This document shows positions 2,985 to 63,316 of a stretch of 64,000 bases of DNA, one piece after another. Each line of letters opens with the position of its first letter. The stretch's first letter is position 1. The notes beneath the pieces are model-generated. The model had not been told where the DNA came from. It saw nothing but the letters and a program-made list of their open reading frames with translations, and ran no database searches. This DNA is from Candidatus Woesebacteria bacterium GW2011_GWC1_42_9 (lineage in GTDB: Bacteria; Patescibacteriota; Microgenomatia; UBA8517): positions 103,028 to 167,027 of the forward strand of contig LCET01000001.1 in NCBI GenBank assembly GCA_000995185.1. The letters are read 5' to 3'. A program made the translations under genes and the position numbers.

Positions 2985-2989
2985 GAGCG

Positions 2990-9143: not shown

Positions 9144-9550
9144 TTGAAATAATACTATTACAGATATCTTTGGGTAAAAAAGGGCTCAAAAAGTGGTCAC
9201 GGGATCACATTGTAAATTTATCTTTGTTCAATTTTATTGTGTTTATGCTGCTTTTACTTCGGTCTGCCGGCTATTTTCATCCATTTTTTTTATTAAGTAT
9301 CAATGTAGTAATTTTTATAACCTTAATCTGTGCAATAGTTTTGTTGAATGCGGGAACGCGATGGTTATTTGCGATGGCTGCATTGTTTTGGATTTTCGCA
9401 TCATTCATGAGAATACTTAAAATAGATGTGTGGGCAGAGAGGACGGCTATTTATACCTATCAATCTTTGTTATTGGGAGTGGCATTAATGATAATTGAAA
9501 ATATAAAGGGAAATTTCGGGAAGCCTTGGAAAGATTTCTTCAGGACCTGA
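9140..9550 (+). CDS. Small hydrophobic membrane protein of unknown function. Its 3' end overlaps the convergent gene 9485-10831.
   Basis: ORF with 3-4 predicted TM helices. No family recognised. Confidence 0.35.
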   Translation: MIEIILLQISLGKKGLKKWSRDHIVNLSLFNFIVFMLLLLRSAGYFHPFFLLSINVVIFITLICAIVLLNAGTRWLFAMAALFWIFASFMRILKIDVWAERTAIYTYQSLLLGVALMIIENIKGNFGKPWKDFFRT

Positions 9551-18237: not shown

Positions 18238-18246
18238 AATATAACC

Positions 18247-21412: not shown

Positions 21413-22770
21413 AGCGATCTCCGATCATTTATATATTACTTCTTGGTTTGATATTGAGGCTTGTTAACATTAATCAGTCCTTGTGGCTGGATGAGGCAAC
21501 AAGTGCCGTTGTGGCGCGTGATTACAACTGGGGTGGAATATGGAGTAATTTTCTACCAAAGGATTTCCACCCCCCGCTTTACTATTTTGCACTAAAGGCA
21601 TGGAGCTTGATTTTTGGGACAAGCGAAATTGCTCTCAGGATGATGTCAGTTGTTTTTGGTATAGCAGCCATTTGGATGATTTATCTGATTGGAAAGCTAG
21701 CTAAATCAAGATCTTTAGGAACAGTTGCCGCTCTTTTTCTGGCTACCGGTCCCCTCCATATTTATTATTCACAAGAGGTAAGGATGTATATGATGAGCCT
21801 GTTTTTAATTGAGTGTGCCATCTACTTTTTTCTATGCAAAAAATGGCTATGGTTCGGAATGTCTCTAGCAACAGTAGGATTAACAGACTATCTTCCGCTC
21901 TTTATTGTTCCGATCTTTTGGATTTATGGCTACATTACTAGATCAAACTATAAATGGTGGAAAAGCTTTATATTATCCCACATTTTTCTGTTGGCGGCAT
22001 TTATCGTGATCTTGCCGATTTTTACATCTCAAGTAACTGGCGGTTTTGAGGTAAAAACGCTTGTAGCCGGCTGGTGGAATATTTTGGGAGGGACGAGCAT
22101 AAAAAATGCCCTGCTTATCCCAGTAAAATTTGTCATCGGAAGGATAAGCTTCCCAAGACTGATATATGTTGGGGTAGTTGGCTTTAGTTTGTCTCTTTTT
22201 GGATTTGTAATGTATCCTTCATTTAGATTAAAAAAATATAGATTTTTTGTGTTGTGGATGATTTTACCGATATTATTTGCTCTAGTGATTGGGCTTTTCC
22301 TGCCGGTTTTAACTTACTTTCGGCTTTTATTTGTTTTGCCCGCCGTGTATTTTCTCTTGGCTACTGGATTAATGGAGCGCGACGATAAATTCTTTTTCCC
22401 GTTTCTAGGAGCGATTCTACTCATGAATGTTTTGTTTTCGGCGAGATATTTAGCTAATAGTCGTTTTCAAAGAGAAGATTGGCGGGGATTTACTGCTTTT
22501 GTAAATAATAATTCTGGAGGTAAATCTATTATCATATTTCCGGCAAATTCTCAGATGGAAGCCCTTAATTTTTATAAACCGGCGATCCCCTATTCAGGTC
22601 CAATTGAGAACTATCGCGATTACGAAGAAATTTGGTTGATGAGGTATGTGTGGGATGTATTTGATCCAGGGGATAAAGTGCGAGAAACTATTGAAAGGTC
22701 TGGTTTTATGAAACAATCCGAGCATAATTTTAATGGGGTGTTAGTTTATAAATATGAAAATAGCAATTGA
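21409..22770 (+). CDS. ArnT/PMT-like (GT39/GT83-type) membrane glycosyltransferase.
   Basis: ILLLGLILRLVNINQSLWLDEATSAVVARDY...HPPLYYFALKAWSLIFGTSEIALRMMSVVFG is a classic PMT_2/ArnT N-terminus. Multi-TM. Confidence 0.75.
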   Translation: MKRSPIIYILLLGLILRLVNINQSLWLDEATSAVVARDYNWGGIWSNFLPKDFHPPLYYFALKAWSLIFGTSEIALRMMSVVFGIAAIWMIYLIGKLAKSRSLGTVAALFLATGPLHIYYSQEVRMYMMSLFLIECAIYFFLCKKWLWFGMSLATVGLTDYLPLFIVPIFWIYGYITRSNYKWWKSFILSHIFLLAAFIVILPIFTSQVTGGFEVKTLVAGWWNILGGTSIKNALLIPVKFVIGRISFPRLIYVGVVGFSLSLFGFVMYPSFRLKKYRFFVLWMILPILFALVIGLFLPVLTYFRLLFVLPAVYFLLATGLMERDDKFFFPFLGAILLMNVLFSARYLANSRFQREDWRGFTAFVNNNSGGKSIIIFPANSQMEALNFYKPAIPYSGPIENYRDYEEIWLMRYVWDVFDPGDKVRETIERSGFMKQSEHNFNGVLVYKYENSN

Positions 22771-48468: not shown

Positions 48469-48527
48469 TTGACACACGCGTGAAAATAGATCAAAATGGT
48501 GAGAATTGGTGAGAAATGGTGAAAAAT
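48469..48527 (+). promoter_or_regulatory. Candidate mraZ promoter (TTGACA 48469 and CAAAAT 48492) followed by three direct MraZ-box-like repeats at 10-bp phasing.
   Basis: TGGTGAGAAT 48498, TGGTGAGAAA 48508, TGGTGAAAAA 48518. The last repeat overlaps the mraZ ATG (48526). MraZ is known to bind a tandem series of GTG-containing repeats at 10-bp periodicity in its own promoter. Confidence 0.6.
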
Positions 48528-48969
48528 GATGCTAGGAACTTTTTCTTCAAACTTAACTTCTCAAAGGCGAGTTGCCGTCCCCATAAAATTTCGGAAAGAA
48601 CTTGGAAAAACATTTATCGTTGCCAGATGGTATGAAAACTGTCTAGTTGTGGTTTCAAAGGCCAATTGGCAGGAACTTTTAAATAAATTAACAGGCAGAT
48701 CAAAGATCTTAACTTCCCCGGTGAGGGATACCGACCGATTTATATTGGGAAGTGCGTATGATCTGATCACAGATTCCCAAGGAAGAGTGGTTTTACCCGA
48801 AAGCTTGGTTAAATTCGCAAAACTGAGGACAGAAGTAGTGTTTGTAGGACTGGGCGACAGAGTTGAAGTGTGGGATAAAGCAGAATGGTCAAGAAGAGAA
48901 GAATACTTTACCAGAAATGCGAGCGAGATGATTGAGAAGCTGGCGGAAGATGAGAAAGGATCGCAATAA
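48526..48969 (+). CDS. mraZ: Transcriptional regulator MraZ.
   Basis: Two half-domains, each with the DxxxR-type motif. MLGTFSSNLTSQRRVAVPIKFRKEL and ITDSQGRVVLPESLVKFAKL. Confidence 0.85.
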   Translation: MMLGTFSSNLTSQRRVAVPIKFRKELGKTFIVARWYENCLVVVSKANWQELLNKLTGRSKILTSPVRDTDRFILGSAYDLITDSQGRVVLPESLVKFAKLRTEVVFVGLGDRVEVWDKAEWSRREEYFTRNASEMIEKLAEDEKGSQ

Positions 48970-49867
48970 TTTTGATCGGCTCCATAAGCCGGTGATGGTC
49001 CATGAAGTGGTTGATTTTCTTGTTAATAAATCCTCGAATTCAGAGGATAAATATATCGATGCAACCCTAGGGGCCGCGGGACACAGCTTGGCTTTGGCTA
49101 ATTATGAAGGAAAAGTCTTGGGAATAGACCAAGACAAAAGAATGTTGGAAATTGCCCGAAAAAATATAGCCTGCCCTTCCCCGCAGCTGCGGGGATCTGC
49201 CAAGCTCGTCCACGGCAACTTTAGAGATATTGATAGGATCGCGGGGGAGAATGGATTTGCCCGCGTTAGGGGAATAGTGTTTGATCTTGGAATATCAAGT
49301 TTCCACTATCAAAGCGGGCAGGGATTTTCGTTCCAAGAGGGGAATAATCCTTTGGACATGAGGCTTGATCCTGAAAGCCAGAGCGTTAGGGGAAGTGATC
49401 TATTAAATTCGCTTCGTACTGATCAACTGGAAACAATGTTTGAGGAAGCGCTCACCAAGGGAGAATCGAAAAGATTGGTGAAGAAAATAATTAGATTTAG
49501 AGAGCGCACGCCAATTAAGACGGTTAACGATTTTTTGAGTGTAATCAGGCAAGGTGTGATTAAAAAAGGGAAAACTGATCCGGCAACCAGACCGTTTTTG
49601 GCTCTGAGGATGGCGGTTAATAGTGAAGTGGACAGTTTGCAAACGGCTCTGCCGAAAGCCGAGGGACTACTAATTTCTGGCGGAAGGTTAGCCATAATTA
49701 GTTTTCATTCGGGAGAGGATAGGATAGTAAAAGAATATTTTAAGGAAAGAGTGCGCGGGGGATACGGGAGGCTTGTTACCGCAAAGCCGGTACTTCCCTC
49801 AATTGAGGAGGTCAAAGAAAACCCCAGCTCGCGAAGCGCAAAATTAAGAATTTATGAAAAAATTTAA
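48932..49867 (+). CDS. rsmH: 16S rRNA (cytosine1402-N4)-methyltransferase RsmH (MraW).
   Basis: HKPVMVHEVVDFL...YIDATLGAAGHSLAL. Conserved position after mraZ. The precise start is uncertain (alternative ATG at 48950). Confidence 0.85.
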   Translation: MRSWRKMRKDRNNFDRLHKPVMVHEVVDFLVNKSSNSEDKYIDATLGAAGHSLALANYEGKVLGIDQDKRMLEIARKNIACPSPQLRGSAKLVHGNFRDIDRIAGENGFARVRGIVFDLGISSFHYQSGQGFSFQEGNNPLDMRLDPESQSVRGSDLLNSLRTDQLETMFEEALTKGESKRLVKKIIRFRERTPIKTVNDFLSVIRQGVIKKGKTDPATRPFLALRMAVNSEVDSLQTALPKAEGLLISGGRLAIISFHSGEDRIVKEYFKERVRGGYGRLVTAKPVLPSIEEVKENPSSRSAKLRIYEKI

Positions 49868-50135
49868 CAAAATAAAAATTGCCCTTATGCTAGGTGGAGT
49901 TCTCATGCTGATAAATGTCTTGGTGACTGCTTTTCTAAGTGCAAAAAGTACGGCTTACTTGAATATTGAGAGCGAGATCAAGGCGATAAATGATCGCAAC
50001 AGGGAGATATCAGAAAACTTGATAAGTGAAACCGCTTTAGTAAATATCCAGATGAGGGCAGAAGGACTAAAGATGGCAAAGCCCCACGACATCATCTATT
50101 TGTCAAAGAAATCTCCGATAGCGAAATTGCCGTAA
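49854..50135 (+). CDS. ftsL: Cell division protein FtsL-like (single-pass membrane protein with a coiled coil).
   Basis: 93 aa. One TM helix (IALMLGGVLMLINVLVTAFL) followed by a helical segment. Located between rsmH and ftsI, as in canonical dcw clusters. Confidence 0.55.
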   Translation: MKKFNKIKIALMLGGVLMLINVLVTAFLSAKSTAYLNIESEIKAINDRNREISENLISETALVNIQMRAEGLKMAKPHDIIYLSKKSPIAKLP

Positions 50136-51848
50136 ATGGAAACTCGTTTGCGAGTGGTTGGATTGTTTTTTATTCTTGCTATGTTTGTACTTCTTGTGAG
50201 ACTTTTTTACTGGCAAATTCTCCGGGGGAAAGTACTATCTGCGCAGGCTCGGGCACAGCATGTTAGTGGAGAAAATATTGATGCTCCGCGCGGAGATATT
50301 TTGGCAAGGGACGGATCGTGGCTTGCCGCAAGCAGTGAAAGCTGGCTGGTTTTTGCATCGTCGGAGGAAATTGATCGCCCGATCCGGGAGATTGCTAATT
50401 TATTGGCACCGTTATTAATTGATGAGGATGATGAAGAGGAAGATTTACTAGGTGTGGCAATGGAAATTGAAGGGCTGCTTAAGGGGAATAACTCACTTTG
50501 GATACCCCTTAAAAAGGGGGTAAACAGTGAAATCAAGAAAAAAATCGAGGAGCTAGCGGTTAATGGGATACATTTTGAGAAGCAAGAGGCGAGGATCTAT
50601 CCGGAAGGGTCGTCAGCGGCTCAGGTGATGGGCTTTGTGGGAAAGGATCAAGATGGTAGTGATCGCGGATATTTTGGCCTCGAGGGATTTTATGATCTGA
50701 CATTGTCAGGAAAGCCTGGATTTGTGGAAAGGGAGTCAAACCCCTTGGGAGTCCCCATCCTTTCTGGGCGCGCCAAGGAAATCACGGCAATTGGCGGGGT
50801 GAGCTTGCACACTCACCTTGACCGCTCTATCCAGCTATTAATTGAAAAAAAGCTCGCGTATGCAATTGAAACATATGGGGCCGTTGCCGGCACGATAATT
50901 GTGATGGATCCAAAGACAGGAGGGATACTTGGGATGGCGTCATCCCCGTCTTATGATCCTGGTAAGTACTATGAATTTGGCGACGAGTATTTTAAAAATC
51001 CTGCGATTAGCGATAGTTTTGAGCCTGGATCAATCTTTAAGCCAATTGTGATGGCATCAGCCCTTGACGCCGGTGAAGTTGAGCCGGATACAAAATGCGA
51101 TATCTGCACTGAGCCATATAAAGTAGACAAATATGTTATTCGCACTTGGAACAATGAGTACCATCCAGATTCAACGATGACTGAAGTACTTCTTCATTCG
51201 GATAATGTGGGGATGGTTTTTGTGGGGCAGAAGCTTGGGATGGATAGAATGTATGATTATTTATCGGCTTTCGGGTTTGGACGGGCGACAGGGATTGATT
51301 TGCAGGGGGAGGTTAGTGCGCCTTTAAGGAAAAAAGATGAGTGGAATATTGTTGATCTTTCAACGGCCTCATTTGGACAAGGAATTGCGGTTACCCCGAT
51401 ACAGATGGTCAAAGCGATGGCAATTATTGCTAATAATGGGGTGGAGATTACTCCGCAAGTTGTCGATAAATTAGAATTTGAAGGGCGGGATGATGATATT
51501 GACCCTGAGATCGGGAAGAGGGTGATTTCGAAAAAATCAGTTGAAAAAATTAAGCAAATGCTCGTGGAAGCGTCGAGCCACGGAGAAGCACAGTGGACGG
51601 CAATAAAAGATTTTAAGATTGCCGGGAAGACGGGGACGGCGCAGATCCCAGTCTCCGGGCATTATGATGAAGAAAAGACAATCGCGAGCTTCATAGGGTT
51701 TGCTCCTGCGGATGAACCTAAATTTGTGATGCTGGTCACTCTCCGCGAGCCTCAAAGTTCGCCTTGGGCCGCAGAAACCGCCGCCCCTTTGTGGTTTAGT
51801 ATTGCCAGCGATCTCTTCCCCTACCTGGGAATCCACCCCGAAAGGTGA
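50136..51848 (+). CDS. ftsI: Class B penicillin-binding protein/peptidoglycan D,D-transpeptidase (FtsI/PBP2-type).
   Basis: N-terminal TM helix and PBP dimerisation region (PRGDILARDGSWLA). Transpeptidase motifs SIFK (SxxK), HSDN (SxN) and KTGT. Confidence 0.85.
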   Translation: METRLRVVGLFFILAMFVLLVRLFYWQILRGKVLSAQARAQHVSGENIDAPRGDILARDGSWLAASSESWLVFASSEEIDRPIREIANLLAPLLIDEDDEEEDLLGVAMEIEGLLKGNNSLWIPLKKGVNSEIKKKIEELAVNGIHFEKQEARIYPEGSSAAQVMGFVGKDQDGSDRGYFGLEGFYDLTLSGKPGFVERESNPLGVPILSGRAKEITAIGGVSLHTHLDRSIQLLIEKKLAYAIETYGAVAGTIIVMDPKTGGILGMASSPSYDPGKYYEFGDEYFKNPAISDSFEPGSIFKPIVMASALDAGEVEPDTKCDICTEPYKVDKYVIRTWNNEYHPDSTMTEVLLHSDNVGMVFVGQKLGMDRMYDYLSAFGFGRATGIDLQGEVSAPLRKKDEWNIVDLSTASFGQGIAVTPIQMVKAMAIIANNGVEITPQVVDKLEFEGRDDDIDPEIGKRVISKKSVEKIKQMLVEASSHGEAQWTAIKDFKIAGKTGTAQIPVSGHYDEEKTIASFIGFAPADEPKFVMLVTLREPQSSPWAAETAAPLWFSIASDLFPYLGIHPER

Positions 51849-51869: not shown

Positions 51870-52787
51870 ATGTCCGTTGAGATTGGTGACAAGGAAACGA
51901 TCAGTGGAGGAATGAGCATTGCCGTTTTCGAGAGGAAATCGTCGAAGTTAAAACCTGAGTGTGAAGATTCGTTTTATGTCGATCAAGATCAAACCGTTTT
52001 TGTTGTTGCGGACGGTATTAGCAGGTTTAGATATCCTTTTAACTATTCTCCTTCTGCAAGAGCGGCACAATCGGCCGCTGTTACAATTGGTAAAGTATTG
52101 GCAGAAAGAGACATGATTAGGCCGCGAGAAGATTTTTTATCTGCCTTTAAAATAGCAAATGATGTAATTCGTGAGCTTAATTTAAAAGAAATAGGATCAG
52201 AGAGATTGCCTTTATGGGAGAGCACCGATTACTATGAGGATGATTTGGCTGGCGCAGTAGCAGCCGTTTGCGTCTTAAGAAACAATTCTTTACATTATGC
52301 ATTTAATGGCGATTGTCAAATAGTGCATTTGCCTTACAAAGGTGAAATCTGGAAAGCCGTTACTCCTGCAACCGATAGGGTGGCACGTTCTAGGTCGGTG
52401 TTCGTGCACCACAAAGAAAATCTACCTGAACCAGAGAGCGGGGATTATGAAGAGGCGTGGAAAAACTACATAAGATTAGTTCATAACGATTATAGAAATA
52501 ATCCCCATGCTGAATTAATGAATTCCACACATGTGACTTATAGTGTATTGAATGGTCAAAGCTCTGCAGTCCATGATATTTATATTAATTCTGGAGAACA
52601 AAAATTGGCGTCTGGGGATATATTTTTACTTTGTTCAGACGGCTTGAATTCATATATAAATGATTTGGGATTTGTATCGATTTTGAAGTCCGGAGAGATC
52701 GATACGTTAAGTACTTATGTTGATAATCACCCCAAGATAGATAAGGAAAACGATGATAAAGTTTGTATTTGTGTGAGATTACCTTAA
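51870..52787 (+). CDS. PP2C-family (PPM) Ser/Thr protein phosphatase inserted in the dcw cluster.
   Basis: EDSFYVDQDQTVFVVADGISR (metal-binding motif 1). GAVAAVCVLRNNSLHYAFNGDCQIVH. GDIFLLCSDGLNSYIND. DDKVCICVRL (C-terminal Asp motif). Confidence 0.65.
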   Translation: MSVEIGDKETISGGMSIAVFERKSSKLKPECEDSFYVDQDQTVFVVADGISRFRYPFNYSPSARAAQSAAVTIGKVLAERDMIRPREDFLSAFKIANDVIRELNLKEIGSERLPLWESTDYYEDDLAGAVAAVCVLRNNSLHYAFNGDCQIVHLPYKGEIWKAVTPATDRVARSRSVFVHHKENLPEPESGDYEEAWKNYIRLVHNDYRNNPHAELMNSTHVTYSVLNGQSSAVHDIYINSGEQKLASGDIFLLCSDGLNSYINDLGFVSILKSGEIDTLSTYVDNHPKIDKENDDKVCICVRLP

Positions 52788-52794
52788 TATAACT

Positions 52795-55533
52795 ATGATT
52801 ATAGATACGCAACTTAAGCGTTTCCCCTTTCAAGTATCGGGGATAGCTGATAACTCTCGTGATGTTAGGAAAGGTTATTTGTTTGTCGCAATTAAAGGGT
52901 TGACCGTGGACGCTCATCAATTTATTCCTGAAGCCGTTAAGAGGGGGGCTACGGTAGTTGTTGGTGAAAAAGATTTTAACGATTTAAATATAAGTCCCAA
53001 AAAAGCTCGGTATATAAAAGTTACGGATTCGAGAAAAGCACTAAGTCTTTTAGCTTCTGCTTGGTACGGAAATCCTGCTAATAAACTAAGACTTATTGGT
53101 GTTACGGGAACTGATGGCAAGACTACCACAGCTTCAATGATATGGTGGATTTTGCAGAAGTCGGGGCTTAAGGTTGGTTTGATTTCTACAGTTTCTGCAA
53201 AAATCGGCAATAAGGAATATGATACAGGCTTCCATGTAACCAACCCTGAGCCACTAGCTCTTCAGAGATTTCTAAAAAAGATGGTGGACAGTGGCTGTGA
53301 ATATGCCGTATTGGAGGTAACTTCTCATGGATTGGATCAAAAACGAGTTTACGGTATTAACTTTGATGTTGGGGTACTGACTAATATAACTCACGAACAT
53401 CTTGATTATCACAAAACTTTTGATGCCTATCGTCGTGCCAAGCTTAAGCTTTTTAAAAATTCGAAAGTGGCAGTATTAAACAAAAATGACAAAAATTCGA
53501 ACTGGGTCAGAAAAAATATAGGCGCAAAAACCATTTTTTATAAACCAGATTTAATGGCAAAGGTTTTTACTGAGACTCATAACCAAGAAAATGCAGCCGC
53601 TGCGATAGCTGTAGCGCGGTATATTAATGTTTCTAAAAAAGAGATTTTATCGGCGCTCAATTGTTTTCCAGGTGTTGAAGGAAGAATGCAAGAGGTCAAA
53701 AATAACAAAGGAATAAAAATAATTATTGATTTTGCCCACACTCCAAATTCACTTAAGTGTGTACTAATAAATCTACGAAAATCTTCGAAAGGAAAATTGA
53801 TATCTGTTTTTGGATGTGCAGGAGAGAGAGATAGTGCGAAAAGGAAGATCATGGGTGGTCTTTCTGCTTCAATTGCTGATTTATCGATATTCACAGCAGA
53901 GGATCCGAGGAGTGAAAAAATCAAGGATATTTTGTTAGAGATGGAAAAGGGAGTACTTAGGAAAAATATCGACAAATATCTTTCTTTCCCCGAAAGAGGA
54001 GATGCAATATATTATGCAATTAACTCTGTCGCCAAAAAAGGAGACACTGTAATTATCTGTGGTAAAGGTCATGAAAAGAGTATGTCTTATTATGGTGTTG
54101 AGTATCCATGGTCAGACAAAGTTGCTGTTTTATCTGCCTTGGAAGGTAAGTCGAAAAGAATCCCCTGGAGAGAGAATATCTATAAAGGGAAAAATGTTGC
54201 TATTTTAGGGCTTGGTTTAGAAGGGAAAGATCTGGCTAATTATCTTGTCAAGATTGGTGCCAACGTGACAATAAGAGATCAAAAGCCAGAAAACGAATTA
54301 GATCTTTCTAAAATACCAAGTGAAAAGATACGATTTATGTGTGGTTCGAAGTATTTGGTCGGCTTAAACCAACATGAATTTATATTTCGTTCTCCAGGCA
54401 TTTATAGGTATAAAAAAGAGTTGGTTTATGCAGAAAAGAAGGGAGTGGTGATATCGAGTGCCATAAAACTATTTTTTGATTTTTGTTCAGCCAGGATTAT
54501 TGGAGTTACAGGTACGAAAGGGAAAGGTACAACTTCTACTTTAGTCTATCAAATTATTAAAAATAGTGGGAAAGATGTTTATCTCGCAGGTAATATAGGT
54601 AGACCATGCTTAAACTTGTTAAGTGAGTTAAGAGCCGATAGTTGGGTAGTATTAGAGCTTTCTTCTTTTCAATTAATAGATTTGGAGAAAAGTCCGCACA
54701 TTTCAGTAGTTCTGAATATAACTTCTGATCATATGGATTGGCATAAAAATCTGAGAGAATACAGAGAATCAAAGAAGAACATAGTCAAATACCAGACGAG
54801 CAAGGACTATTCGGTTATAAATGCTGACTATCATTCTTCGAAGGTATTTTCGCAAAATACCTTTGCAAAACTTTATTACTTTAGCAGAAATAAAAAAGTT
54901 TGTGGAGCATATGTGACTGGAGATTCTATTTATCTTAATTTTGGTGAGAAAATATTAATCGGAAATATAAAAAAATTATTATTGAGAGGGAAACACAATT
55001 TGGAAAACATAACTGCTGCGATTTGTGCCGCATATTTATCAGAAGCAGAAGTTCAGGAAATCAAAAATACAATATTTGAATTTAAAGGACTAGAGCATAG
55101 ACTAGAGTTAGTAAGAAAAATTAAAGGAGTATCATTTTATAACGATTCGTTTTCTACTAATCCCCAAACTACAGTTGCTGCAGTCGATTCATTTAAAGAA
55201 TCACTCACTCTAATTCTCGGGGGCTATAATAAGGGATTGGATTATGGAACATTAATAAAAAAAATTTCTAAAGCTAAGAATCTGAAAAATATTATTTTGA
55301 TTGGAGATTTGTCAACCGATTTAAATAAATTGTTATTAAAAAGTAATTTTAAAGGCAAAATAATTGAATTAAAAAGAGCCTCAATGAGAAAGATAATTAG
55401 AAATTGTTTTAAAATAACAGATCCCGGTGGAGTAGTTTTGCTTTCGCCTGCAGCAGCCTCATTTGATATGTTCAAAGACTATAAAGATAGAGGAGAGAAG
55501 TTTAAATCGACAGTAAGTAAATTTAACTTTTAA
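52795..55533 (+). CDS. murE-murD: In-frame MurE-MurD fusion. The N-terminal half is UDP-MurNAc-L-Ala-D-Glu:diamino-acid ligase. The C-terminal half is UDP-MurNAc-L-Ala:D-Glu ligase.
   Basis: First half: DNSRDVRKGYLFVAIKG..DAHQFI, IGVTGTDGKTTT, DFAHTPNSL, ICGKGHE. Second half from about residue 460: KNVAILGLGLEGKDLANYLVKIGANVTIRD, IGVTGTKGKGTT, LAGNIGRPCL, VVLELSSFQL, GKHNLENITAA, FKGLEHRLE, FYNDSFSTNPQT, LLSPAAASFDMFKDYKDRGEKF. There is no stop between the halves. Confidence 0.8.
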   Translation: MIIDTQLKRFPFQVSGIADNSRDVRKGYLFVAIKGLTVDAHQFIPEAVKRGATVVVGEKDFNDLNISPKKARYIKVTDSRKALSLLASAWYGNPANKLRLIGVTGTDGKTTTASMIWWILQKSGLKVGLISTVSAKIGNKEYDTGFHVTNPEPLALQRFLKKMVDSGCEYAVLEVTSHGLDQKRVYGINFDVGVLTNITHEHLDYHKTFDAYRRAKLKLFKNSKVAVLNKNDKNSNWVRKNIGAKTIFYKPDLMAKVFTETHNQENAAAAIAVARYINVSKKEILSALNCFPGVEGRMQEVKNNKGIKIIIDFAHTPNSLKCVLINLRKSSKGKLISVFGCAGERDSAKRKIMGGLSASIADLSIFTAEDPRSEKIKDILLEMEKGVLRKNIDKYLSFPERGDAIYYAINSVAKKGDTVIICGKGHEKSMSYYGVEYPWSDKVAVLSALEGKSKRIPWRENIYKGKNVAILGLGLEGKDLANYLVKIGANVTIRDQKPENELDLSKIPSEKIRFMCGSKYLVGLNQHEFIFRSPGIYRYKKELVYAEKKGVVISSAIKLFFDFCSARIIGVTGTKGKGTTSTLVYQIIKNSGKDVYLAGNIGRPCLNLLSELRADSWVVLELSSFQLIDLEKSPHISVVLNITSDHMDWHKNLREYRESKKNIVKYQTSKDYSVINADYHSSKVFSQNTFAKLYYFSRNKKVCGAYVTGDSIYLNFGEKILIGNIKKLLLRGKHNLENITAAICAAYLSEAEVQEIKNTIFEFKGLEHRLELVRKIKGVSFYNDSFSTNPQTTVAAVDSFKESLTLILGGYNKGLDYGTLIKKISKAKNLKNIILIGDLSTDLNKLLLKSNFKGKIIELKRASMRKIIRNCFKITDPGGVVLLSPAAASFDMFKDYKDRGEKFKSTVSKFNF

Positions 55534-56163
55534 ATGGTCTTACTAGAAAATGAAAGTAGGTATAATCACGAATCTGAAAGGCTTGATGGAGAATTAAGCC
55601 TTGTATTTATACGAGGATTACCAGGCTCTGGCAAAACGACAGTCGCGAGTGAAATGGTTAGATTAATAGGAATTAATGGAGTTGAATTGATAGATCCAGA
55701 TATTATTGATAAAGATTCTGAAGATTATTCCGAATTTGTACGAAAATTGTCTCAAGCACAGCCTGAATTAGATCCTAAATTTTTTCTATATAGGTATATG
55801 CTTTTTCGAGCCAGATGTGCTCTGCTGGAAGGGAGGTCGGTAATATGGGATCAACCTTTCAGCCTCTTAAGTGGATTGAAGCATGCAATCGTTACAACGG
55901 AATCTTATTTTCAAAATTTGTCGGAAATACAAGTAATTATAGTCGATCTTGATATTGATCCCGAAGAGTCTTATAAGAGAGTGCAAGATAGAATTAGCAA
56001 GGGTGGTCATGGGCCAGACAGATTGACTTTTGATTCTTTCGTTTCTAAATATCAACCTGCCGAGTGTTTAGGTAGAAATCATATTTCTCTTTCTGGCATG
56101 GGATCTCCAATTGAAAATGCAGAAAGAGTTTTTGAAATGATTAAATGTCAGAAGAAAGATTGA
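55534..56163 (+). CDS. P-loop NTPase/kinase (AAA_33-like), function unknown.
   Basis: Walker A GLPGSGKTT. Probable Walker B VIIVDLD. Confidence 0.55.
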   Translation: MVLLENESRYNHESERLDGELSLVFIRGLPGSGKTTVASEMVRLIGINGVELIDPDIIDKDSEDYSEFVRKLSQAQPELDPKFFLYRYMLFRARCALLEGRSVIWDQPFSLLSGLKHAIVTTESYFQNLSEIQVIIVDLDIDPEESYKRVQDRISKGGHGPDRLTFDSFVSKYQPAECLGRNHISLSGMGSPIENAERVFEMIKCQKKD

Positions 56164-56783
56164 ATATAGTTCTTACTAGACACTTAGCAACTGAATTTAA
56201 CAGGAGCGGGAGGATTATGGGAAGGGTATTCGATGAAGGAATAGTTAGAGACGATCAATTGGATAAATTTAGGACGAGGTTGGTCTCTTTGAAGAATTAT
56301 TGCTACTTAGACACAAAGACGACTAAGATTATATCTAGCCCTTTTAGGAGATGTATCGAGACAGCAGAGATAGCAAGAGAAGAGCTGTCTCTTGACGCCG
56401 GTATAATTACTTCCGAGCTATTGACAGAGACAGATATGGGGAGATTCTCTGGGGAAATCGCTAAAGATTTAAGGGGGGAATTTGGTAGCTTAATAGATAC
56501 ATGGATGCATTATCCTGAATCTTTCATCTTCCCGGGAGGTGAGTCGTATTCTAAAGTAGATGAGCGCGTAATAGAATTTTTGAGGTATTTGAGAGATGAT
56601 TATCATGGTAAAAACGTTGTAGTTTGTAGTCATGCTGATGTAATAAAAATGATGGTTTCAAAAGTTCTAAATCAACCTTTTAATAACAGGAGATATTTTA
56701 TCGTTCCTAATGGATCTATAAGTTTATTGACTCTGCCTAGGGGCGGTGAATACAGGCTTGAGGGAGTAAATATGTGGCCTTAG
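56145..56783 (+). CDS. Histidine phosphatase superfamily protein (phosphoglycerate-mutase-like, branch 1).
   Basis: LTRHLATEFNRSGRIMG (the RHG-type catalytic His motif) and VVVCSHADVIKMM (second His). Overlaps the upstream kinase by 19 nt. Confidence 0.65.
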   Translation: MSEERLNIVLTRHLATEFNRSGRIMGRVFDEGIVRDDQLDKFRTRLVSLKNYCYLDTKTTKIISSPFRRCIETAEIAREELSLDAGIITSELLTETDMGRFSGEIAKDLRGEFGSLIDTWMHYPESFIFPGGESYSKVDERVIEFLRYLRDDYHGKNVVVCSHADVIKMMVSKVLNQPFNNRRYFIVPNGSISLLTLPRGGEYRLEGVNMWP

Positions 56784-57859
56784 TGTATTTGATGGAATTC
56801 CAAGGTATTATCCCCAAAGCATGTGACTAAAAAACTGGAGTTACTGACTCGACATAGCCCAGTTGGCTCTTTCCCTGTGTACTGAGATCTCCCTTGCACT
56901 TTTTCTTTGTCTATGTCAACAAGATAGACACATGAGGAGCCTCTACATGAAACAATAATCTCGTTATTTCCTAGAAAGTCTATAGAATTTGGAGATTTCC
57001 CAACAGCTATTTTTTTAGTGTTTTTCAGGGTATCCGTGGAATACTGAAGGAGCAAGTTCCTGCCTAAATTAGAAACATACGCATACTCTCCTCTTTCATC
57101 AATGATTATATGTCTCATATTTCCGGAATACCTGGGTTTTTCGAACGGCTCTGTTGTTGTAATGTTAAACCATTCATCTGAGTATTTTTTGAATACGCCT
57201 AGATTTCCAGAATAAAATCCAGTCACAATAGCGCTATTACCATCTGGTGCAAAAGCTATTCCTCTGGGGGCCTCTCCCCACTCAAGGGTTTGTTTTAATT
57301 TGGGAGCAAAGGAGTCAGATGTATCAATTACACTGATGTTGTGGCTATGCCAGTTTGAAATCATAATTTCATTATGTATTGGGTTGACTGCTATCAACTT
57401 ACTCCAATTACCTCCTGTATTCAGAGATGAGAGAATTGAGAGGTTCTCTGCGTTAATAATCCATAATTGATTTCTTGTTTTTCTTGGCGGTCGTTCAAAA
57501 TTCGTAGTAGTTGCATATAGTAAGCCACCATCTATAGCTACCTCAACACATTGATCTTCAAAATTTACTTCATCGGCAAAATGTAATTTCCTATTATCAT
57601 GGGAAAACTTTTGAAGACTTCGCCCTGACATGCATGATACATATGCATTTCGTTTGCTTGGGTCGTATACAACTTGTTTAGGTTGGGGCCTTGTTTCTAT
57701 ACCGTCTAATTTTTCTCCTGTTTCAACAACTCTCTCTGGTGGTAAAAAAATTTTTGATTCGGGTGGAGGACTAATTGTTGTTCTCCAGTATCGTTTTATG
57801 TGTTTTGGAAGATTTTTGAAATCCAAAATTTCTGGAACATATCTGCCTACCTCCTTCAT
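56780..57859 (-). CDS. YVTN-family beta-propeller repeat protein.
   Basis: Repeated blade motifs: NAYVSCMSG, LLYATT, PRGIAFAPDGNSAIVT, YAYVSNLGRNLL, SPNSIDF. Confidence 0.6.
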   Translation of the reverse strand: MKEVGRYVPEILDFKNLPKHIKRYWRTTISPPPESKIFLPPERVVETGEKLDGIETRPQPKQVVYDPSKRNAYVSCMSGRSLQKFSHDNRKLHFADEVNFEDQCVEVAIDGGLLYATTTNFERPPRKTRNQLWIINAENLSILSSLNTGGNWSKLIAVNPIHNEIMISNWHSHNISVIDTSDSFAPKLKQTLEWGEAPRGIAFAPDGNSAIVTGFYSGNLGVFKKYSDEWFNITTTEPFEKPRYSGNMRHIIIDERGEYAYVSNLGRNLLLQYSTDTLKNTKKIAVGKSPNSIDFLGNNEIIVSCRGSSCVYLVDIDKEKVQGRSQYTGKEPTGLCRVSNSSFLVTCFGDNTLEFHQIH

Positions 57860-58218: not shown

Positions 58219-59364
58219 ATGGCTGTGAATAAAAAGAAAAATAAAGTGGCGGTCATGTTTGGAGGAGTATCTCCCGAACATGAGGTGTCGGTAATAACTG
58301 GTCTTCAGGTTGTCGAGAATATTGATAGAAAAGTTTTTACTCCATATGCCATATTATTAAATAAGCAGGGTATTTTCGAATATTATAAGGGCCTTAAAAA
58401 TAGACGAGGGTACGTTAAAATTAAGCCCAACGCTGTTAATTTTGGCAGGGATAAGAAAGGCAGCTTTTTTCAGACAACTGGTTTATTGAAGGAAAAGATT
58501 TATATAGATGCGGCTTATTTGGCATTTCATGGCGGCAATGGGGAATCTGGCCAACTTCAGGGATTTTTAGAAACATTAGACATACCCTATACATCTCCAA
58601 ATGTCGAGTCTTCTGTGATCACAATGAATAAAGTAATTACTAAGCAAATTTTGTCGTCAAATGGAATTTCAACAGTTGAAGGAGTTAGTGTTAGGGATGA
58701 AGATATAAAAAAGAATGTTGATGAAGTTATTAAAAACACCAAAATAAAATTACCAGCAATAATTAAACCGGCGCATCTTGGATCAAGTATTGGCATAAAT
58801 ATTGCAAAAACGAAGGTGGAGCTGAAAAAATATTTATTGGAGGCATCCCATATTGACCCGGAGATATTAATCGAAAAATTGATTAGTAATTTCGAGGAAT
58901 ATAATATTTCAGTAAGAAGGATAAAAGGGAAAATCGGAGCTAGTGAAGTTGAAAGACCAATTTCTAAGGATCAGATTTTGTCGTTTACTGATAAGTATCA
59001 AAGAGGCGGCAAAAAAAGTGGAGGCATGGCCAGCCTGAGTCGTGAACTTCCGGCAAAAATCGATAAGATTCTTGAAGAAAAATTAAAAAAATTAGCGGTT
59101 GAAGTATTTAGGTTAATTAGAGCGAAAGGCATGATAAGGATAGATTTTATGGTTTCGGCAGACAAGATCTATGTTACAGAAGTAAACCCAATCCCTGGGT
59201 CCATGAGCTACTACCTTTGGGAAGCGAGTGGAGTGAGTTTTAGGGAACAAATCACAGATCTTATTGATCAAGCGATTGCTGATTTTTCCGAAAAACAGTC
59301 AAAGAGGGTAGATTATAGATCAGATATTGTAGAAAAATTTATTACTCATAATATAGATCATTAA
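58219..59364 (+). CDS. ddl: D-alanine--D-alanine ligase (ATP-grasp).
   Basis: KVAVMFGGVSPEHEVSVITGLQV (Dala_Dala_lig_N). ATP-grasp body. C-terminal IRIDFMVSADKIYVTEVNPIPG. Confidence 0.85.
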   Translation: MAVNKKKNKVAVMFGGVSPEHEVSVITGLQVVENIDRKVFTPYAILLNKQGIFEYYKGLKNRRGYVKIKPNAVNFGRDKKGSFFQTTGLLKEKIYIDAAYLAFHGGNGESGQLQGFLETLDIPYTSPNVESSVITMNKVITKQILSSNGISTVEGVSVRDEDIKKNVDEVIKNTKIKLPAIIKPAHLGSSIGINIAKTKVELKKYLLEASHIDPEILIEKLISNFEEYNISVRRIKGKIGASEVERPISKDQILSFTDKYQRGGKKSGGMASLSRELPAKIDKILEEKLKKLAVEVFRLIRAKGMIRIDFMVSADKIYVTEVNPIPGSMSYYLWEASGVSFREQITDLIDQAIADFSEKQSKRVDYRSDIVEKFITHNIDH

Positions 59365-60514
59365 GTTCTGGTTGAAGTAGGATTAGATATTTTTTGGGGT
59401 CATATTCTTCCAAGATTTTCCAGGCATCATTCAGATTATTTGCCAATATAAACTTATTCGAATTATTTATCACTTCAGTATATAAAATCGACTTTAGTAA
59501 AATAATTTTGTGAACTTTTTTTACTAAATATTTTCCAAGTTTTTTGTTGGCATATTTGTTTTCTTCTCCTAGTTCAGGGATGCCGGCGGTGATGACTATT
59601 AGTCCCTTTTTGTCTAGTTTTGCTAATTTAACTGCATTGTCAACCCCATATTTGGCTGTATCCCCACTAATATTGTAGCTTTGATCAATAACTTTAAATT
59701 TATTGATAATTTTGACATCGCCCCTTCTGTCCGGCTTTTTCAACTTTGTGATTGTATCTTTGATAATGTCATTCGGGATATTTAGTATTTTAGCTACTTT
59801 TAGTGCATAGGCTAAATTAGTTTTTTTATCACAGATTTTAATTGCATTTGGTTTTGCGTAATCAAAAATTTCAAGTAAGGCTTTTTTTAAGTTTGATTTT
59901 GAGCCGAGTCTCTCTAAGTGTTGGTCGCCGACATTGGTTAGTAGTGCAATATCCGGAGGAGTAATTCTAAGACTCCTTTTAATTTCTCCAACGAAATATG
60001 TATCAACCTCTACAATTAATAGTTCGCTTGAATGGTCGAAATTATTTAGTAGCCAATTAGCAATACCCGTGGGAGTATTAATATTGCCGGGGATAATTTG
60101 AGTTTTATAATTATATCTAACAAACTCGTAAATATAATTTTTGACCGTGGTTTTGCCATATGAACCGGCGATGGCAATTACTTTTGTATTTTTGCCGTAC
60201 TTATTAAAGTGGATTGCGGCGTTTTTTTGAATATTTAATTTAATCCGCTCAAAATAAGGTGTTAAAACAGAATTTGATAACCATATCCAAAGTGGTGTGA
60301 AAGGCGGCATGGTTATACAAAAGGGCAGTGCTAGTGCCAAAGTAATATTTATTCTTTTTGTATAGACTAATTTACCCCTTTTTTGGATATTCCTCCTCCA
60401 CCAAAAACGCTTTATTGTATTAAAGTATCTCTTAGATTCATACTCTTCAAGTTGAAGAAGGTACAAAAAATCAGCTATCGGATAGATTGTTGATAAAATT
60501 TTTGACATAGCCAA
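59342..60514 (-). CDS. murF: Mur ligase family protein, MurF-like (UDP-MurNAc-tripeptide:D-Ala-D-Ala ligase). It has an atypical N-terminus carrying a hydrophobic segment.
   Basis: VIAIAGSYGKTTVKNYI, PGNINTPTGIANWLL (parallels MurF GNLNNEIGVP), LLTNVGDQHLERLGS, DQSYNISGDTAKYG (parallels DDSYNAN), IVITAGIPELGEE. The first ~100 aa lack the usual MurF N-terminal domain and contain ITLALALPFCITMPPFTPLWIWL. Confidence 0.6.
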   Translation of the reverse strand: MAMSKILSTIYPIADFLYLLQLEEYESKRYFNTIKRFWWRRNIQKRGKLVYTKRINITLALALPFCITMPPFTPLWIWLSNSVLTPYFERIKLNIQKNAAIHFNKYGKNTKVIAIAGSYGKTTVKNYIYEFVRYNYKTQIIPGNINTPTGIANWLLNNFDHSSELLIVEVDTYFVGEIKRSLRITPPDIALLTNVGDQHLERLGSKSNLKKALLEIFDYAKPNAIKICDKKTNLAYALKVAKILNIPNDIIKDTITKLKKPDRRGDVKIINKFKVIDQSYNISGDTAKYGVDNAVKLAKLDKKGLIVITAGIPELGEENKYANKKLGKYLVKKVHKIILLKSILYTEVINNSNKFILANNLNDAWKILEEYDPKKYLILLQPELNDLYYE

Positions 60515-61154
60515 AAAATAGATCTGACTTATCTAAAAAAACGTTGTGGCCAGCGTTTTCTATGATTTTCAGTTGAGAATTTGGGATTAGTTTTTCCATT
60601 TCATACGCGATATGCAGTGGGACTTGATCATCATTTTCTCCCCAGATCAAGAGAGTGGGTATTATTATTTTTTTTAGACTTGTTGATTGGTCGTAAGTAA
60701 TGATATTTCTGAAAATTTTCTCAAGCTTTCCCGCCCTTTTTAGATCTTCCGAGTAAAATAATACTTTAATACCCTTTGGCATAAATACTTTTAATAATTT
60801 ATATATTTTTATTTTTGCCTTTACTAATGTTGATGGTCTATAGAGACAAGGCGCGCCGGTTAATACGAGTCCTTTTAAAAGTTTTGGATTTTTACTAGCC
60901 ACTTCAGCCGCGATTCTGCCTCCAAACGAATGCCCAATTAGAACAGTGTCTTTTTTTTTGTCAATTCGCCGTATGACCCAATCGGCATATTCCGGAATTC
61001 CCCAGTCATCTTTGACAAGAGGTTCGTCCCCAAACCCAGGCAAATCTAATGCTTTTGCATTTTTACCAAACTTAGTTGCTAAGTTTTTCCAAAGCTCTCT
61101 ATTGTGTCCCCACCCGTGCAAAATAATTATTTTCATCTTGCCATATTTTACCAT
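60471..61154 (-). CDS. Alpha/beta-hydrolase fold protein.
   Basis: IIILHGWGHN (oxyanion-hole region). LIGHSFGG (GxSxG nucleophile elbow). ENAGHNVFLD (catalytic His). Confidence 0.65.
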   Translation of the reverse strand: MVKYGKMKIIILHGWGHNRELWKNLATKFGKNAKALDLPGFGDEPLVKDDWGIPEYADWVIRRIDKKKDTVLIGHSFGGRIAAEVASKNPKLLKGLVLTGAPCLYRPSTLVKAKIKIYKLLKVFMPKGIKVLFYSEDLKRAGKLEKIFRNIITYDQSTSLKKIIIPTLLIWGENDDQVPLHIAYEMEKLIPNSQLKIIENAGHNVFLDKSDLFFGYVKNFINNLSDS

Positions 61155-61187: not shown

Positions 61188-62252
61188 ATGGGCGCAACTA
61201 ACATTCTTCCACTCTCACTTGGGATAATTATTTTTTCCTTTCTAGTTACGAGTATCTTAGTCGTGCCGTTTATTGATTTTCTCTACAAGCTAAAGCTCAC
61301 TAGAAGGAAGGAAGGAGAGGTTAGGGGGATTAAAAAATCGCTTTTTGATAAGCTCCATGATAAAAAAGCCGGTACTCCAATCGGCGGAGGGATCTTGGTT
61401 ATTGCGGTCGTGGTGATACTTTTTGCACTGCTTGTCCCACTGATAAGTAGGCTCGGGGTGAAAATTGAGGCTTCGTACCCACCTAGAAAAGAATTGATAT
61501 TAATATTTTTTACTTTCATTATGTTTGGTGTTTTAGGGTTTCTTGATGACTACACAAAGATATTTGGAAGACCCAGACCGGGTGCACTGGGTGCTGCGTT
61601 TGGATTGAGTAAGAGAACTAAATTTGGCCTGCAGTGGGTGCTTGGGTTTATCGTTGGCTTTCTTCTTTATAGCTGGATGGGTATAAGCATCCTACACGTC
61701 CCCTTAATAGATGTGTCGGTAGATATTGGGGCTGCATACGTACCTTTTGCCGCATTTATTGTTGTGTTTTTTGCGAATGCTTTCAACTTCACGGATGGAT
61801 TGGATGGTCTGGCGAGTGGACTACTCATTATTTACCTTCTCACCTATATGATCATGATCGTGACGATTGGTAATCAAGACACGCTTCTTTACGTATTTAC
61901 TTCGCTTTGGATAGGCGCTTTGGGAGCATTTTTATATTTTAATATTTGGCCTGCAAGGATCTTTTTGGGCGACGCTGGCGCTCTTTCTTTTGGGGCAATG
62001 ATCGCGGTCATAGGATTAATGATAGGTAATGTGGCTACTCTGTTTATAGTTGGAGGGATATTTGTGATCGAGGCGGCAACAAGCGCAATTCAAATATTTG
62101 GGTGGAAGCTTTTGAATAGGCCAATTTTCCCGCTGGCACCAATCCATCATACTTTTCTTACTATTGGCTGGGAGGAGCCAAAGATTGTCATGAGAGCCTG
62201 GATTATCGGGATATTGATGGCAATATTTGGATTATGGTTGGCCGCAATTTAA
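61188..62252 (+). CDS. mraY: Phospho-N-acetylmuramoyl-pentapeptide transferase MraY.
   Basis: NAFNFTDGLDGLASG and ten TM helices. The PNPT family signature is clear. Confidence 0.9.
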   Translation: MGATNILPLSLGIIIFSFLVTSILVVPFIDFLYKLKLTRRKEGEVRGIKKSLFDKLHDKKAGTPIGGGILVIAVVVILFALLVPLISRLGVKIEASYPPRKELILIFFTFIMFGVLGFLDDYTKIFGRPRPGALGAAFGLSKRTKFGLQWVLGFIVGFLLYSWMGISILHVPLIDVSVDIGAAYVPFAAFIVVFFANAFNFTDGLDGLASGLLIIYLLTYMIMIVTIGNQDTLLYVFTSLWIGALGAFLYFNIWPARIFLGDAGALSFGAMIAVIGLMIGNVATLFIVGGIFVIEAATSAIQIFGWKLLNRPIFPLAPIHHTFLTIGWEEPKIVMRAWIIGILMAIFGLWLAAI

Positions 62253-63316
62253 AAAAAAATAGGTCAATTGACCGGGGATTACTGTTTCTAACTTTGGGAT
62301 TAACTGTAGTGGGAGTTGTCGTAGTTGCAGATGTTTCTTCCCCTCAGGCTTTAGAGGTATTTTCGGACAGTTTCTATTTTGCAAAACAGCAGTTAATGTG
62401 GGCCGTGGCTGGAATAGTCCTTCTTTTGATTAGTTCAAAGGTTAATTATAATATTTGGAGGAAGCTTTCCTTGCCGTTATTTGCGATGAGCATGGTGTTA
62501 TTGGTGCTGGTTTTAATACCAGGATTTGGAGCTAAAACACTTGGAGCGCAAAGGTGGCTTATTTTAGGTCCCATAAGGTTCCAGCCTTCAGAGTTAGCTA
62601 AGCTGACACTGGCGATATTTTTCGCTGATAACTTGACGAAAAACCGACCATTTTATTTTTATTTGGGAATTTTGGCGGGAGTATTTGGTTTAATTATGCT
62701 TCAGCCGGACTTAGGGACATCGTTGGTCTTATTGAGTATTGGGATGTCACAGCTTTTTATCTCAGGTATTTCTCTGACTTGGCTAACGGGTACAATATTT
62801 TTGGGCGGGCTAGTCGGGACAGGTTTAGTTTTGCTTTCCCCTTATCGCAAGGAAAGATTGATGACTTTTTTAACGAGCTCTTCTGATCCCCTAGATAGCT
62901 CATATCATATTCGCCAAATTTTAATTGCAATTGGTTCAGGTGGTTTATTTGGAGTGGGGCTGGGACAATCAAGGCAGAAACATTTATTTATTCCAGAGAC
63001 GGCAACGGACTCGGTTTTTGCGGTGTTGGCAGAGGAGATTGGATTTATTGGATCAAGCTTGATAATAATTCTTTTATTTGTCTATATCTTTAAAACAGTC
63101 AAGGTGGCTAAGAATGCCGAGGACGGATTTGCGAAACTGTTAGCAGGAGGGATCTCGGTATGGATGGGGGTACAAATTATTCTTAATCTTTCCTCTATGC
63201 TTGCTCTTACCCCATTAACAGGGATTCCTCTACCTTTTTTTAGTTATGGGGGGTCAAGTTTAGTGATGATTTTATTATCAACGGGAATATTATTAAATAT
63301 AAGTAAACATGGTTAA
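62234..63316 (+). CDS. ftsW: SEDS-family peptidoglycan glycosyltransferase FtsW/RodA.
   Basis: PSELAKLTLAIFFA and PETATDSVFAVLAEEIGFIGSSLIIILLFVYIF (parallels the ..TDFIFAVIGEELGFIG.. consensus). Confidence 0.85.
   Translation: MVGRNLKKNRSIDRGLLFLTLGLTVVGVVVVADVSSPQALEVFSDSFYFAKQQLMWAVAGIVLLLISSKVNYNIWRKLSLPLFAMSMVLLVLVLIPGFGAKTLGAQRWLILGPIRFQPSELAKLTLAIFFADNLTKNRPFYFYLGILAGVFGLIMLQPDLGTSLVLLSIGMSQLFISGISLTWLTGTIFLGGLVGTGLVLLSPYRKERLMTFLTSSSDPLDSSYHIRQILIAIGSGGLFGVGLGQSRQKHLFIPETATDSVFAVLAEEIGFIGSSLIIILLFVYIFKTVKVAKNAEDGFAKLLAGGISVWMGVQIILNLSSMLALTPLTGIPLPFFSYGGSSLVMILLSTGILLNISKHG

Follow-up and report, generated by a model that had tools for sequence, protein, structure and literature searches.

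Fusion of MurE and MurD in a single open reading frame of a Woesebacteria genome and its relatives

In the cytoplasmic part of peptidoglycan synthesis, the step catalysed by MurD is followed directly by that of MurE. Here we describe a gene in which the two ligases are joined in one polypeptide of 912 amino acids, with MurE N-terminal to MurD. The gene lies at 52795..55533 on the plus strand of a 64,000-nucleotide stretch of contig LCET01000001.1 (positions 103,028 to 167,027; assembly GCA_000995185.1), to which we refer as the window. We conclude that this open reading frame (ORF) very probably encodes a genuine bifunctional enzyme with two autonomous and complete Mur ligase modules, and that it probably arose when the reading frames of adjacent, overlapping genes merged. 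The DNA comes from Candidatus Woesebacteria bacterium GW2011_GWC1_42_9, a groundwater member of the candidate phyla radiation (CPR; Patescibacteria). Fusions are written below with the N-terminal module first, so that the window encodes MurE~MurD (E~D).

Two complete ligases in one frame

The frame runs from an ATG through 912 codons to a stop and is translated without an internal stop; at the approximately 36% GC of its DNA, an open frame of this length is well beyond chance. Across the whole protein, Pfam identifies one Mur_ligase domain (amino acids 14–91), two Mur_ligase_M domains, two Mur_ligase_C domains and a MurD-like_N domain (PF21799, amino acids 466–553). For the NCBIfam scan, the N half (amino acids 1–457) and the C half (amino acids 458–912) were run separately, and both are full-length and above the cut-offs: residues 1 to around 460 constitute a full-length MurE, and residues from around 463 to 912 a full-length MurD. 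The profile for bifunctional MurE/MurF (NF008896) gives 467.8 bits, below its cut-off of 1023; the second module is MurD and not MurF. The original prediction, made from the DNA letters alone, had described a complete MurE followed by a complete MurD without stop or frameshift, and the ORF listing, Pfam and NCBIfam agree with it in coordinates, length and domain order; as it had also pointed out, the order E–D in the polypeptide reverses that of the pathway, in which MurD acts before MurE.

The MurE module (52795..54174, +) scores 451.3 bits against the murE profile TIGR01085 (cut-off 257.3) and 447.2 bits against the equivalog NF001126 for the diaminopimelate (DAP) ligase (cut-off 373). It contains all three domains of the Mur ligase set (PF01225, PF08245 and PF02875), and its closest solved structure is T. 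maritima MurE (4bub, E 9e-81). The module ends at the natural MurE C terminus, ...ALEGKSKRIPWREN, and the C termini of standalone MurE relatives align at this point (54174). Its ATP-binding P-loop is GVTGTDGKTTT (amino acids 102–112; 53098..53130, +), in which GTDGKTT occupies amino acids 104–110. Lys216, within YRRAKLKLF (53440..53442, +), is presumably the position of the carbamylated catalytic lysine, K224 in E. coli MurE. The DNPR motif of MurE specifies meso-DAP; at its place, in alignments to 4bub and 2wtz, the fusion has EDPR (amino acids 369–372; 53899..53910, +), in which the Arg is retained and Asn is replaced by Asp. M. tuberculosis MurE (2wtz) reads ..ddnprded.. at the motif, and the Lys-adding T. 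maritima MurE, which EDPR resembles, likewise has DDPR (..tddprged.. in 4bub).

The MurD module (54181..55530, +) matches the equivalog murD profile TIGR01087 with 374.4 bits (cut-off 211.95) over profile positions 1–440 of 441. It begins with the MurD-type Rossmann-like N domain (the PF21799 match), and its closest solved structure is S. agalactiae MurD (3lk7, E 1.4e-72). The ATP-binding P-loop is GVTGTKGKGTTS (amino acids 570–581; 54502..54537, +) and includes GTKGKGTT at amino acids 573–580. We take Lys660, within YRESKKNIV (54772..54774, +), to be the equivalent of the carbamylated lysine K198 of E. coli MurD. D645 and H646, the equivalents of D182 and H183 in E. coli, are also present.

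One substrate-facing position departs from solved MurDs. The motif YNDSFSTN (amino acids 782–789; 55138..55161, +) puts Phe786 at the position of E. coli MurD Lys348, beside the D-Glu substrate, whereas solved MurDs retain the lysine (NDSK(A/S/G)TN). The position of L416 is also Phe, as in MurD2, in which a change at the K348 position together with D182 switches the stereospecificity for Glu, L-Glu versus D-Glu (PMC8788868). Among standalone MurDs of the Woesebacteria type, however, a hydrophobic residue (F, I, A, L or Y) occupies the K348 position in 116 of 118 motif matches, and the same is true of MurDs from many Patescibacteria, some Clostridia, Gemmatimonas and Fibrobacteria; in many Patescibacteria and some Clostridia, the hydrophobic-type protein is the sole MurD found in the fetched cluster. 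Judged by these comparisons, Phe786 is a lineage trait that marks a MurD subtype and provides no argument for excluding the module from the MurD family, although this subtype may recognise the second stem-peptide residue differently. We also considered Phe786 as a change of MurD function specific to the fusion, and rejected this as standalone relatives carry the same substitution.

The fusion is conserved among relatives

The reality of the fusion was judged from assembled contigs. In ENA, JGI and Logan assemblies, 17 contigs encode the identical 912-amino-acid protein, each time among identical neighbours. A further 17 clusters at 90% identity (P0002–P0018; ENA, Logan, JGI and NCBI) share the four-domain set of this protein at 98–99% query coverage and 50–60% identity, and BLAST of each half finds MurE followed by MurD in all 17 (46–62% identity per half). 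The original prediction had proposed a search for the same fusion in related genomes; with the fusion present in 18 clusters, homologues are not always two ORFs. Two complete enzymes thus share one ORF that was assembled repeatedly and is kept in orthologues, as expected of a natural Mur chimera.

In an alignment of the 18 fusions (the window and P0002–P0018; overall identity 52–60%), both P-loops, K216, K660, the HxxDxH-type motifs and the C-terminal SPAxASFxMF are invariant or nearly so, which indicates that both modules are under purifying selection. T572–T580, D645 and H646 are invariant in the MurD module and K575 is nearly so; in the MurE specificity motif, D370 and R372 are invariant and P371 nearly invariant. 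One orthologue, P0012, has GTDGQTT instead of GTDGKTT in the MurE P-loop (alignment columns 121–127), replacing the ATP-binding Lys with Gln; the change may mean that the MurE module of P0012 is inactive, or it may be a sequencing error of that contig. On the contig of another orthologue (P0002, locus L084), mraY, ftsW, ftsA and ftsZ are each broken into several short ORFs (16902–22706), which suggests an indel-rich, long-read assembly, and the fusion frame of P0002 should be treated with caution.

The fusion is a minority state. Standalone MurDs with 51–60% identity far outnumber the fusions, and all 120 of the matches listed are without a MurE module. A scan of genome contigs with two peptide patterns from the MurD half returned only standalone MurDs among the 80 loci listed, and is uninformative about the number of GTDB species with the fusion. 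The original prediction had stated that murE and murD are almost always separate genes. Standalone MurDs are indeed far more common, but Mur fusions are a known class (PMC10214165) and are frequent and varied in CPR bacteria.

Junction anatomy and origin of the fusion

The modules meet at IPWRENIY (amino acids 456–463; 54160..54183, +), where the MurE tail passes straight into the MurD N terminus with no linker domain; the sequence across the fusion is ...ALEGKSKRIPWRENIYKGKNVAILG. In relatives, standalone MurEs end in ...ALKGKVKKINWKRR and a stop, or similar, and standalone MurDs start with M..FKNKKVAVLG. The median end of the standalone MurE tails lies 2 residues beyond fusion residue 457, and the median start of the standalone MurD heads 2 residues after residue 458. 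Both the length and the sequence of the junction vary across the 18-fusion alignment, and some orthologues lack even the few junction residues. Ahead of the GxGxxG motif of MurD, the junction offers no in-frame ATG, GTG or TTG at which translation of a separate MurD could begin; the closest in-frame start candidate is an ATC (54178), and an ATG at 54194 is out of frame.

Two unfused relatives have the genes side by side. In L092, murE (480–2009) and murD (2006–3373) overlap by 4 nt (ATGA); in L093 (GCA_040961665.1), murE (9001–10527) and murD (10512–11882) overlap by 16 nt. L093 is as near to the window as the fused genomes are (58% identity in FtsI), and it alone shares the AAA_33 kinase, histidine phosphatase and beta-propeller of the window (40–54% identity). 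Its MurE ends in ...EIKWKKN and a stop where the window has ...RIPWRENIYKGKNVAILG, its MurD starts with MEEKLAGKKIAVVG, and the DNA at its junction is AAA TGG AAG AAA AAT TAG / A ATG GAA GAA AAA TTA GCT. We infer that one additional A in the A5 run of L093 would yield ...KWKKKLAGKKIAVVG, collinear with ...PWRENIYKGKNVAILG in the window.

These relatives indicate how the fusion probably formed. In the Woesebacteria lineage, murE and murD would have become adjacent, in the order E then D, so that the stop of murE and the start of murD overlapped. A minor mutation there that brought the two genes into one frame would then have eliminated both signals, leaving the natural C terminus of MurE attached to the natural N terminus of MurD. 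As the genes are already adjacent and overlapping in L092 and L093, a merge of frames is all that the fusion needed, and it probably arose from two overlapping neighbours in this way. An ancestral gene order of E–D would also explain the reversed order of the enzymes without a functional reason, and the E-before-D arrangement is most simply read as inherited gene order. The original prediction had placed murF and mraY between murE and murD in division and cell wall (dcw) clusters. This holds for canonical clusters, which keep both genes there (for example, L005, L032, L039 and L044), but not for the near relatives L092 and L093, in which murE and murD are adjacent and overlap.

Structure model and proposed working

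An AlphaFold2 model built from an 18-sequence alignment has a mean predicted local distance difference test (pLDDT) score of 85.5 and a predicted template modelling (pTM) score of 0.56, so that the relative arrangement of domains and modules is not confident. Its parts match solved structures: the MurE part 4c12 (TMt 0.75) and the MurD part 5a5f (TMt 0.80). At the junction, a helix (441–449) precedes and a strand (467–471) follows a stretch, residues 451–460, with a mean pLDDT of 70. The top Foldseek match by E value is the MurE–MurF structure 8f5d (E 1.3e-34); over 852 columns the TM score to it is 0.33–0.37, with a root-mean-square deviation of 22.7 Å, and there is no global match.

On the basis of family membership, the C-terminal MurD module would ligate the second stem-peptide residue to uridine diphosphate N-acetylmuramoyl-L-alanine (UDP-MurNAc-L-Ala). 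The UDP-MurNAc-dipeptide, released or nearby, would then receive its diamino acid (meso-DAP or Lys) from the N-terminal MurE module, and each module would use an ATP site of its own. The consequence would be obligatory 1:1 co-expression and co-localisation of consecutive enzymes that were formerly coupled in translation. Most likely, we infer, the fusion was a small or near-neutral step that locked in this co-expression and proximity, for which a dedicated substrate tunnel would not be needed.

Weighing the alternatives

Some points weigh against a bifunctional enzyme formed by a merge of frames. The bifunctionality is predicted from sequence; the amino-acid substrate of the MurD module is assumed, given Phe786 in place of the Lys beside D-Glu; and with EDPR rather than DNPR, the third residue may be meso-DAP or Lys. 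In neighbour-joining trees of the MurD and MurE segments, the fusions are scattered among standalone proteins and do not form a single clade, although these trees are star-like and without bootstrap, with distances that are all similar (around 50–60% identity), and do not tell one origin in Woesebacteria from several.

The alternative with most in its favour, which we nevertheless consider unlikely, is that the fusion imposes a fixed channelling geometry between the MurD and MurE modules; substrate channelling had been raised as a possibility in the original prediction. The two act in consecutive steps, the junction is essentially linker-less, as in the linker-less MurE–MurF class (PMC10214165), the arrangement is kept in all 18 clusters at 46–62% identity per half, and several lineages have each arrived independently at a fusion of MurD and MurE. 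The low pTM of the model despite its high mean pLDDT, together with a global architecture that is not that of 8f5d, argues against a fixed geometry, as do a junction that varies among orthologues to the point of lacking linker residues, the occurrence of both E~D and D~E, and relatives equally close to the window that use separate, overlapping genes. It is improbable, too, that one module is no longer a canonical ligase, for example that the MurD half uses another amino acid or serves as a scaffold only. The substitution of Lys by Phe786 at a position that, with D182, sets the Glu stereospecificity of MurD2 (PMC8788868), the second MurD2-like Phe at L416 and the EDPR motif in MurE would fit such a loss; yet the near-universal hydrophobic residue in standalone relatives, and its presence in many Patescibacteria and some Clostridia, indicates a normal MurD subtype, the D182 and H183 equivalents, the P-loop and K660 are conserved, TIGR01087 is passed by a wide margin and the window holds no other murD.

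We regard it as very improbable that the single ORF gives rise to two separate enzymes through internal initiation or proteolysis at the junction. A purine-rich GGAGAGAG (54167–54174) resembles a leftover ribosome-binding site, and the pLDDT of the junction is below that of the flanking segments; however, the GGAG-like stretch is followed by no canonical in-frame start (the ATC at 54178 is the nearest in-frame candidate, and the ATG at 54194 is out of frame), promoter-like sites occur at chance frequency, and the junction spans just a few residues, with a helix on one side and a strand on the other, both within folded domains. On these grounds we rejected independent initiation of MurD, whether from a start codon inside the ORF or from a promoter of its own. 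Least probable of all, to the point of being hard to sustain, is a sequencing or assembly artefact that masks a stop or introduces an indel between overlapping genes. A 1-nt homopolymer indel in genes that overlap as they do in close relatives would produce a false fusion, and the fragmented neighbours of P0002 suggest that error-prone assemblies are among the data. Set against this are the 17 contigs with the identical protein, which represent three or more independent sources and assemblers (an ENA k127 contig, JGI and Logan), and 17 other clusters that are likewise in frame with different junction sequences. Moreover, no more than a few codons separate the MurE tail (..IPWREN) from the MurD head (YKGKNVAILG) and both are read in one frame, so that no indel is required and any indel between them would break one of the two matches, and there is no in-frame ATG, GTG or TTG for a separate MurD before GxGxxG. 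A bifunctional MurE~MurD that arose by frame merge is therefore the reading that we retain.

Other Mur fusions

Natural Mur chimeras are a known class, to which MurE~MurD adds a new pairing. The most complete survey of such chimeras lists MurE–MurF, MurC–Ddl, MurC–MurB, MurG–MurC, MurD–FtsW and MraY–MurG (PMC10214165); known examples include MurC–Ddl in Chlamydia, MurB/MurC in Verrucomicrobium and MurG–MurC in Actinobacteria (PMC10214165, PMC4803751). The MurE–MurD pairing is not among the surveyed types, and no description of it was found in the literature searched, which is not proof of absence. The survey, from 2023, used UniProt and left out chimeras whose species was not identified (PMC10214165), and this may be why a fusion from uncultured CPR bacteria is missing. 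Like the published chimeras, the window fusion joins neighbouring dcw genes in one ORF, is lineage-specific and is conserved within its clade.

The closest described parallel is MurE–MurF of B. pertussis (8F5D), for which the activity of both modules has been demonstrated (PMC10214165, PMC6420597). Both proteins consist of two complete ligases for consecutive steps, have MurE at the N terminus and are joined head to tail without a linker in dcw gene order. They differ in that the partner of MurE in the window is MurD, the preceding step, rather than MurF, the following one, so that the module order in the window is opposite to the pathway. In the B. pertussis chimera, MurF is without its N-terminal ‘cap’ and the C terminus of MurE covers a hydrophobic patch (PMC10214165, PMC6420597); nothing comparable is evident at the window junction, although the cap is a MurF feature and was not searched for in MurD.

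A wider search covered 1.84 billion representatives at 50% identity, in which the Woesebacteria fusions fall in the cluster of the query itself. It returned five distant E~D representatives (P0254, P0267, P0342, P0343 and P0348) with around 28–33% identity per half; P0267/P0380 is MBL6689095.1, from a Pseudomonadales metagenome-assembled genome (MAG). The loci of this second family (L087 8001–10727, from the Pseudomonadales MAG; L088 8001–10808, on a contig of 828 kb; and L090 5671–8538) share the context ftsI-murE~D-ftsW-murC-ftsQ-ftsA-ftsZ, followed by lpxC in L087 and L088, and within these clusters murF, mraY, murG and ddl are not at their usual places. The proteobacteria-type fusions (P0267/P0380, P0343 and P0348) resemble that of the window in E–D order, domain set and position directly after ftsI, but differ in their low identity per half and in the apparent removal of murF and mraY from between the two genes. 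The family to which L087, L088 and L090 belong has an independent origin and is probably proteobacterial.

Other CPR bacteria have the mirror arrangement, MurD~MurE (P0039, P0041 of around 890 amino acids, and P0056), and triple MurC~MurD~MurE fusions of 1330–1349 amino acids (P0026, P0035 and P0051, the last from Candidatus Parcubacteria). These pass the cut-offs of TIGR01087 and TIGR01085 and, as in the window, unite the same two enzymes through short junctions in compact cell-wall operons; they differ in following the pathway, D then E, as does their local gene order. Their identity to the window halves is only 33–43%, which marks them as independent fusion events. P0041 (L091 8001–10676) lies in a pathway-ordered operon, murA-murB-murC-murD~E-murF-ddl-mraY, and fusions in other lineages likewise follow the local gene order: D~E within murA-murB-murC-murD~E-murF, and E~D within ftsI-murE~D-ftsW.

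MurE~MurF, MurE~MurF~MurB, MurD~MurB and MurE~GlmU-N fusions were also among the matches. Many Woesebacteria have a MurE with a C-terminal nucleotidyltransferase domain (P0021 and around 25 other matches, of around 680–783 amino acids; further loci are L005 5672–7708 and L010 3856–5757). In P0021, which is the nearest relative of the window MurE half (65% identity), amino acids 474–715 match GlmU positions 2–238, the uridyltransferase half only. The MurE~GlmU-N type is absent from the published survey (PMC10214165).

Genome neighbourhood

The dcw cluster around the fusion is tightly packed, with non-canonical genes inserted on either side. Upstream on the plus strand are the dcw genes mraZ (48526–48969), rsmH (48932–49867), an ORF of the size of ftsL (49854–50135) and ftsI (50136–51848). 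Between ftsI and the fusion lies an ORF of 305 amino acids (51870–52787) with a weak match to PP2C phosphatases; the fusion gene begins 8 nt past it, and the ATG of the next gene (55534) abuts the fusion stop. The best promoter-like site, TTGACA-17-CAAAAT (48469–48497), is just 5′ of mraZ; promoter-like sites in the region as a whole are at chance level (32 found, 26.1 ± 4.7 expected).

Downstream, an AAA_33/zeta-toxin-like kinase, a histidine phosphatase (branch 1) and a beta-propeller on the minus strand lie within 55534–57859. This trio, which the window shares with the unfused L093, is missing from the other fused genomes; its target might be a cell-wall precursor. The cluster continues with ddl (58219–59364, +), a divergent murF-like ligase of 390 amino acids (59342–60514, −), an alpha/beta hydrolase (60471–61154, −), mraY (61188–62252, +) and ftsW (62234–63316, +), followed by murG and ftsA. 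The murF-like gene, the only one near the cluster, scores 127 bits against TIGR01143 (cut-off 288.6), and only its central Mur_ligase_M domain is recognised; the N-terminal residues, around 100 in number, align with the counterpart in L085 (450 amino acids) and include a hydrophobic, possibly membrane-associated stretch.

Searches with tblastn in the 64-kb window returned neither another copy of murE or murD nor any murA, murB or murC, and the last three must be located elsewhere in the genome. The other fused genomes have the order ftsI-[murA-murC-murB]-murE~D-[murF]-ddl-...-mraY-ftsW-murG-ftsA-ftsZ.

Implications

The database entry that is 100% identical to the ORF carries a name that covers MurE only, and a genome with a protein named in this way could be wrongly scored as lacking murD.

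Natural Mur fusions have served as evidence for a multi-enzyme complex in the cytoplasmic steps of peptidoglycan synthesis, and also as handles for structural work. The MurE–MurD fusion described here comes with an evolutionary intermediate, the overlapping and coupled genes of close relatives, as well as with a mirror D~E form and a triple C~D~E form. Taken by itself, it is an otherwise ordinary fusion of neighbouring pathway genes; its usefulness grows a little when it is placed beside the other permuted Mur fusions of CPR bacteria. Together they offer an inexpensive natural test of the importance of module order, and so of whether channelling, or co-expression only, is at work, and could serve to probe the hypothesis of a Mur complex.

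A bolder proposal, which we put forward as speculative and think unlikely, is that CPR bacteria maintain a ‘permutation set’ of Mur chimeras (E~D, D~E, C~D~E, E~F, E~F~B, D~B and MurE~GlmU-N), in which a defined interface between the modules of the Woesebacteria MurE~MurD would pass the UDP-MurNAc-dipeptide from MurD back to the MurE site. If this were true, MurE~MurD would offer a stable and crystallisable proxy for the multi-enzyme complex of cytoplasmic Mur enzymes that has long been postulated, and it would cover the D-to-E pair of steps, for which no such complex has been seen.

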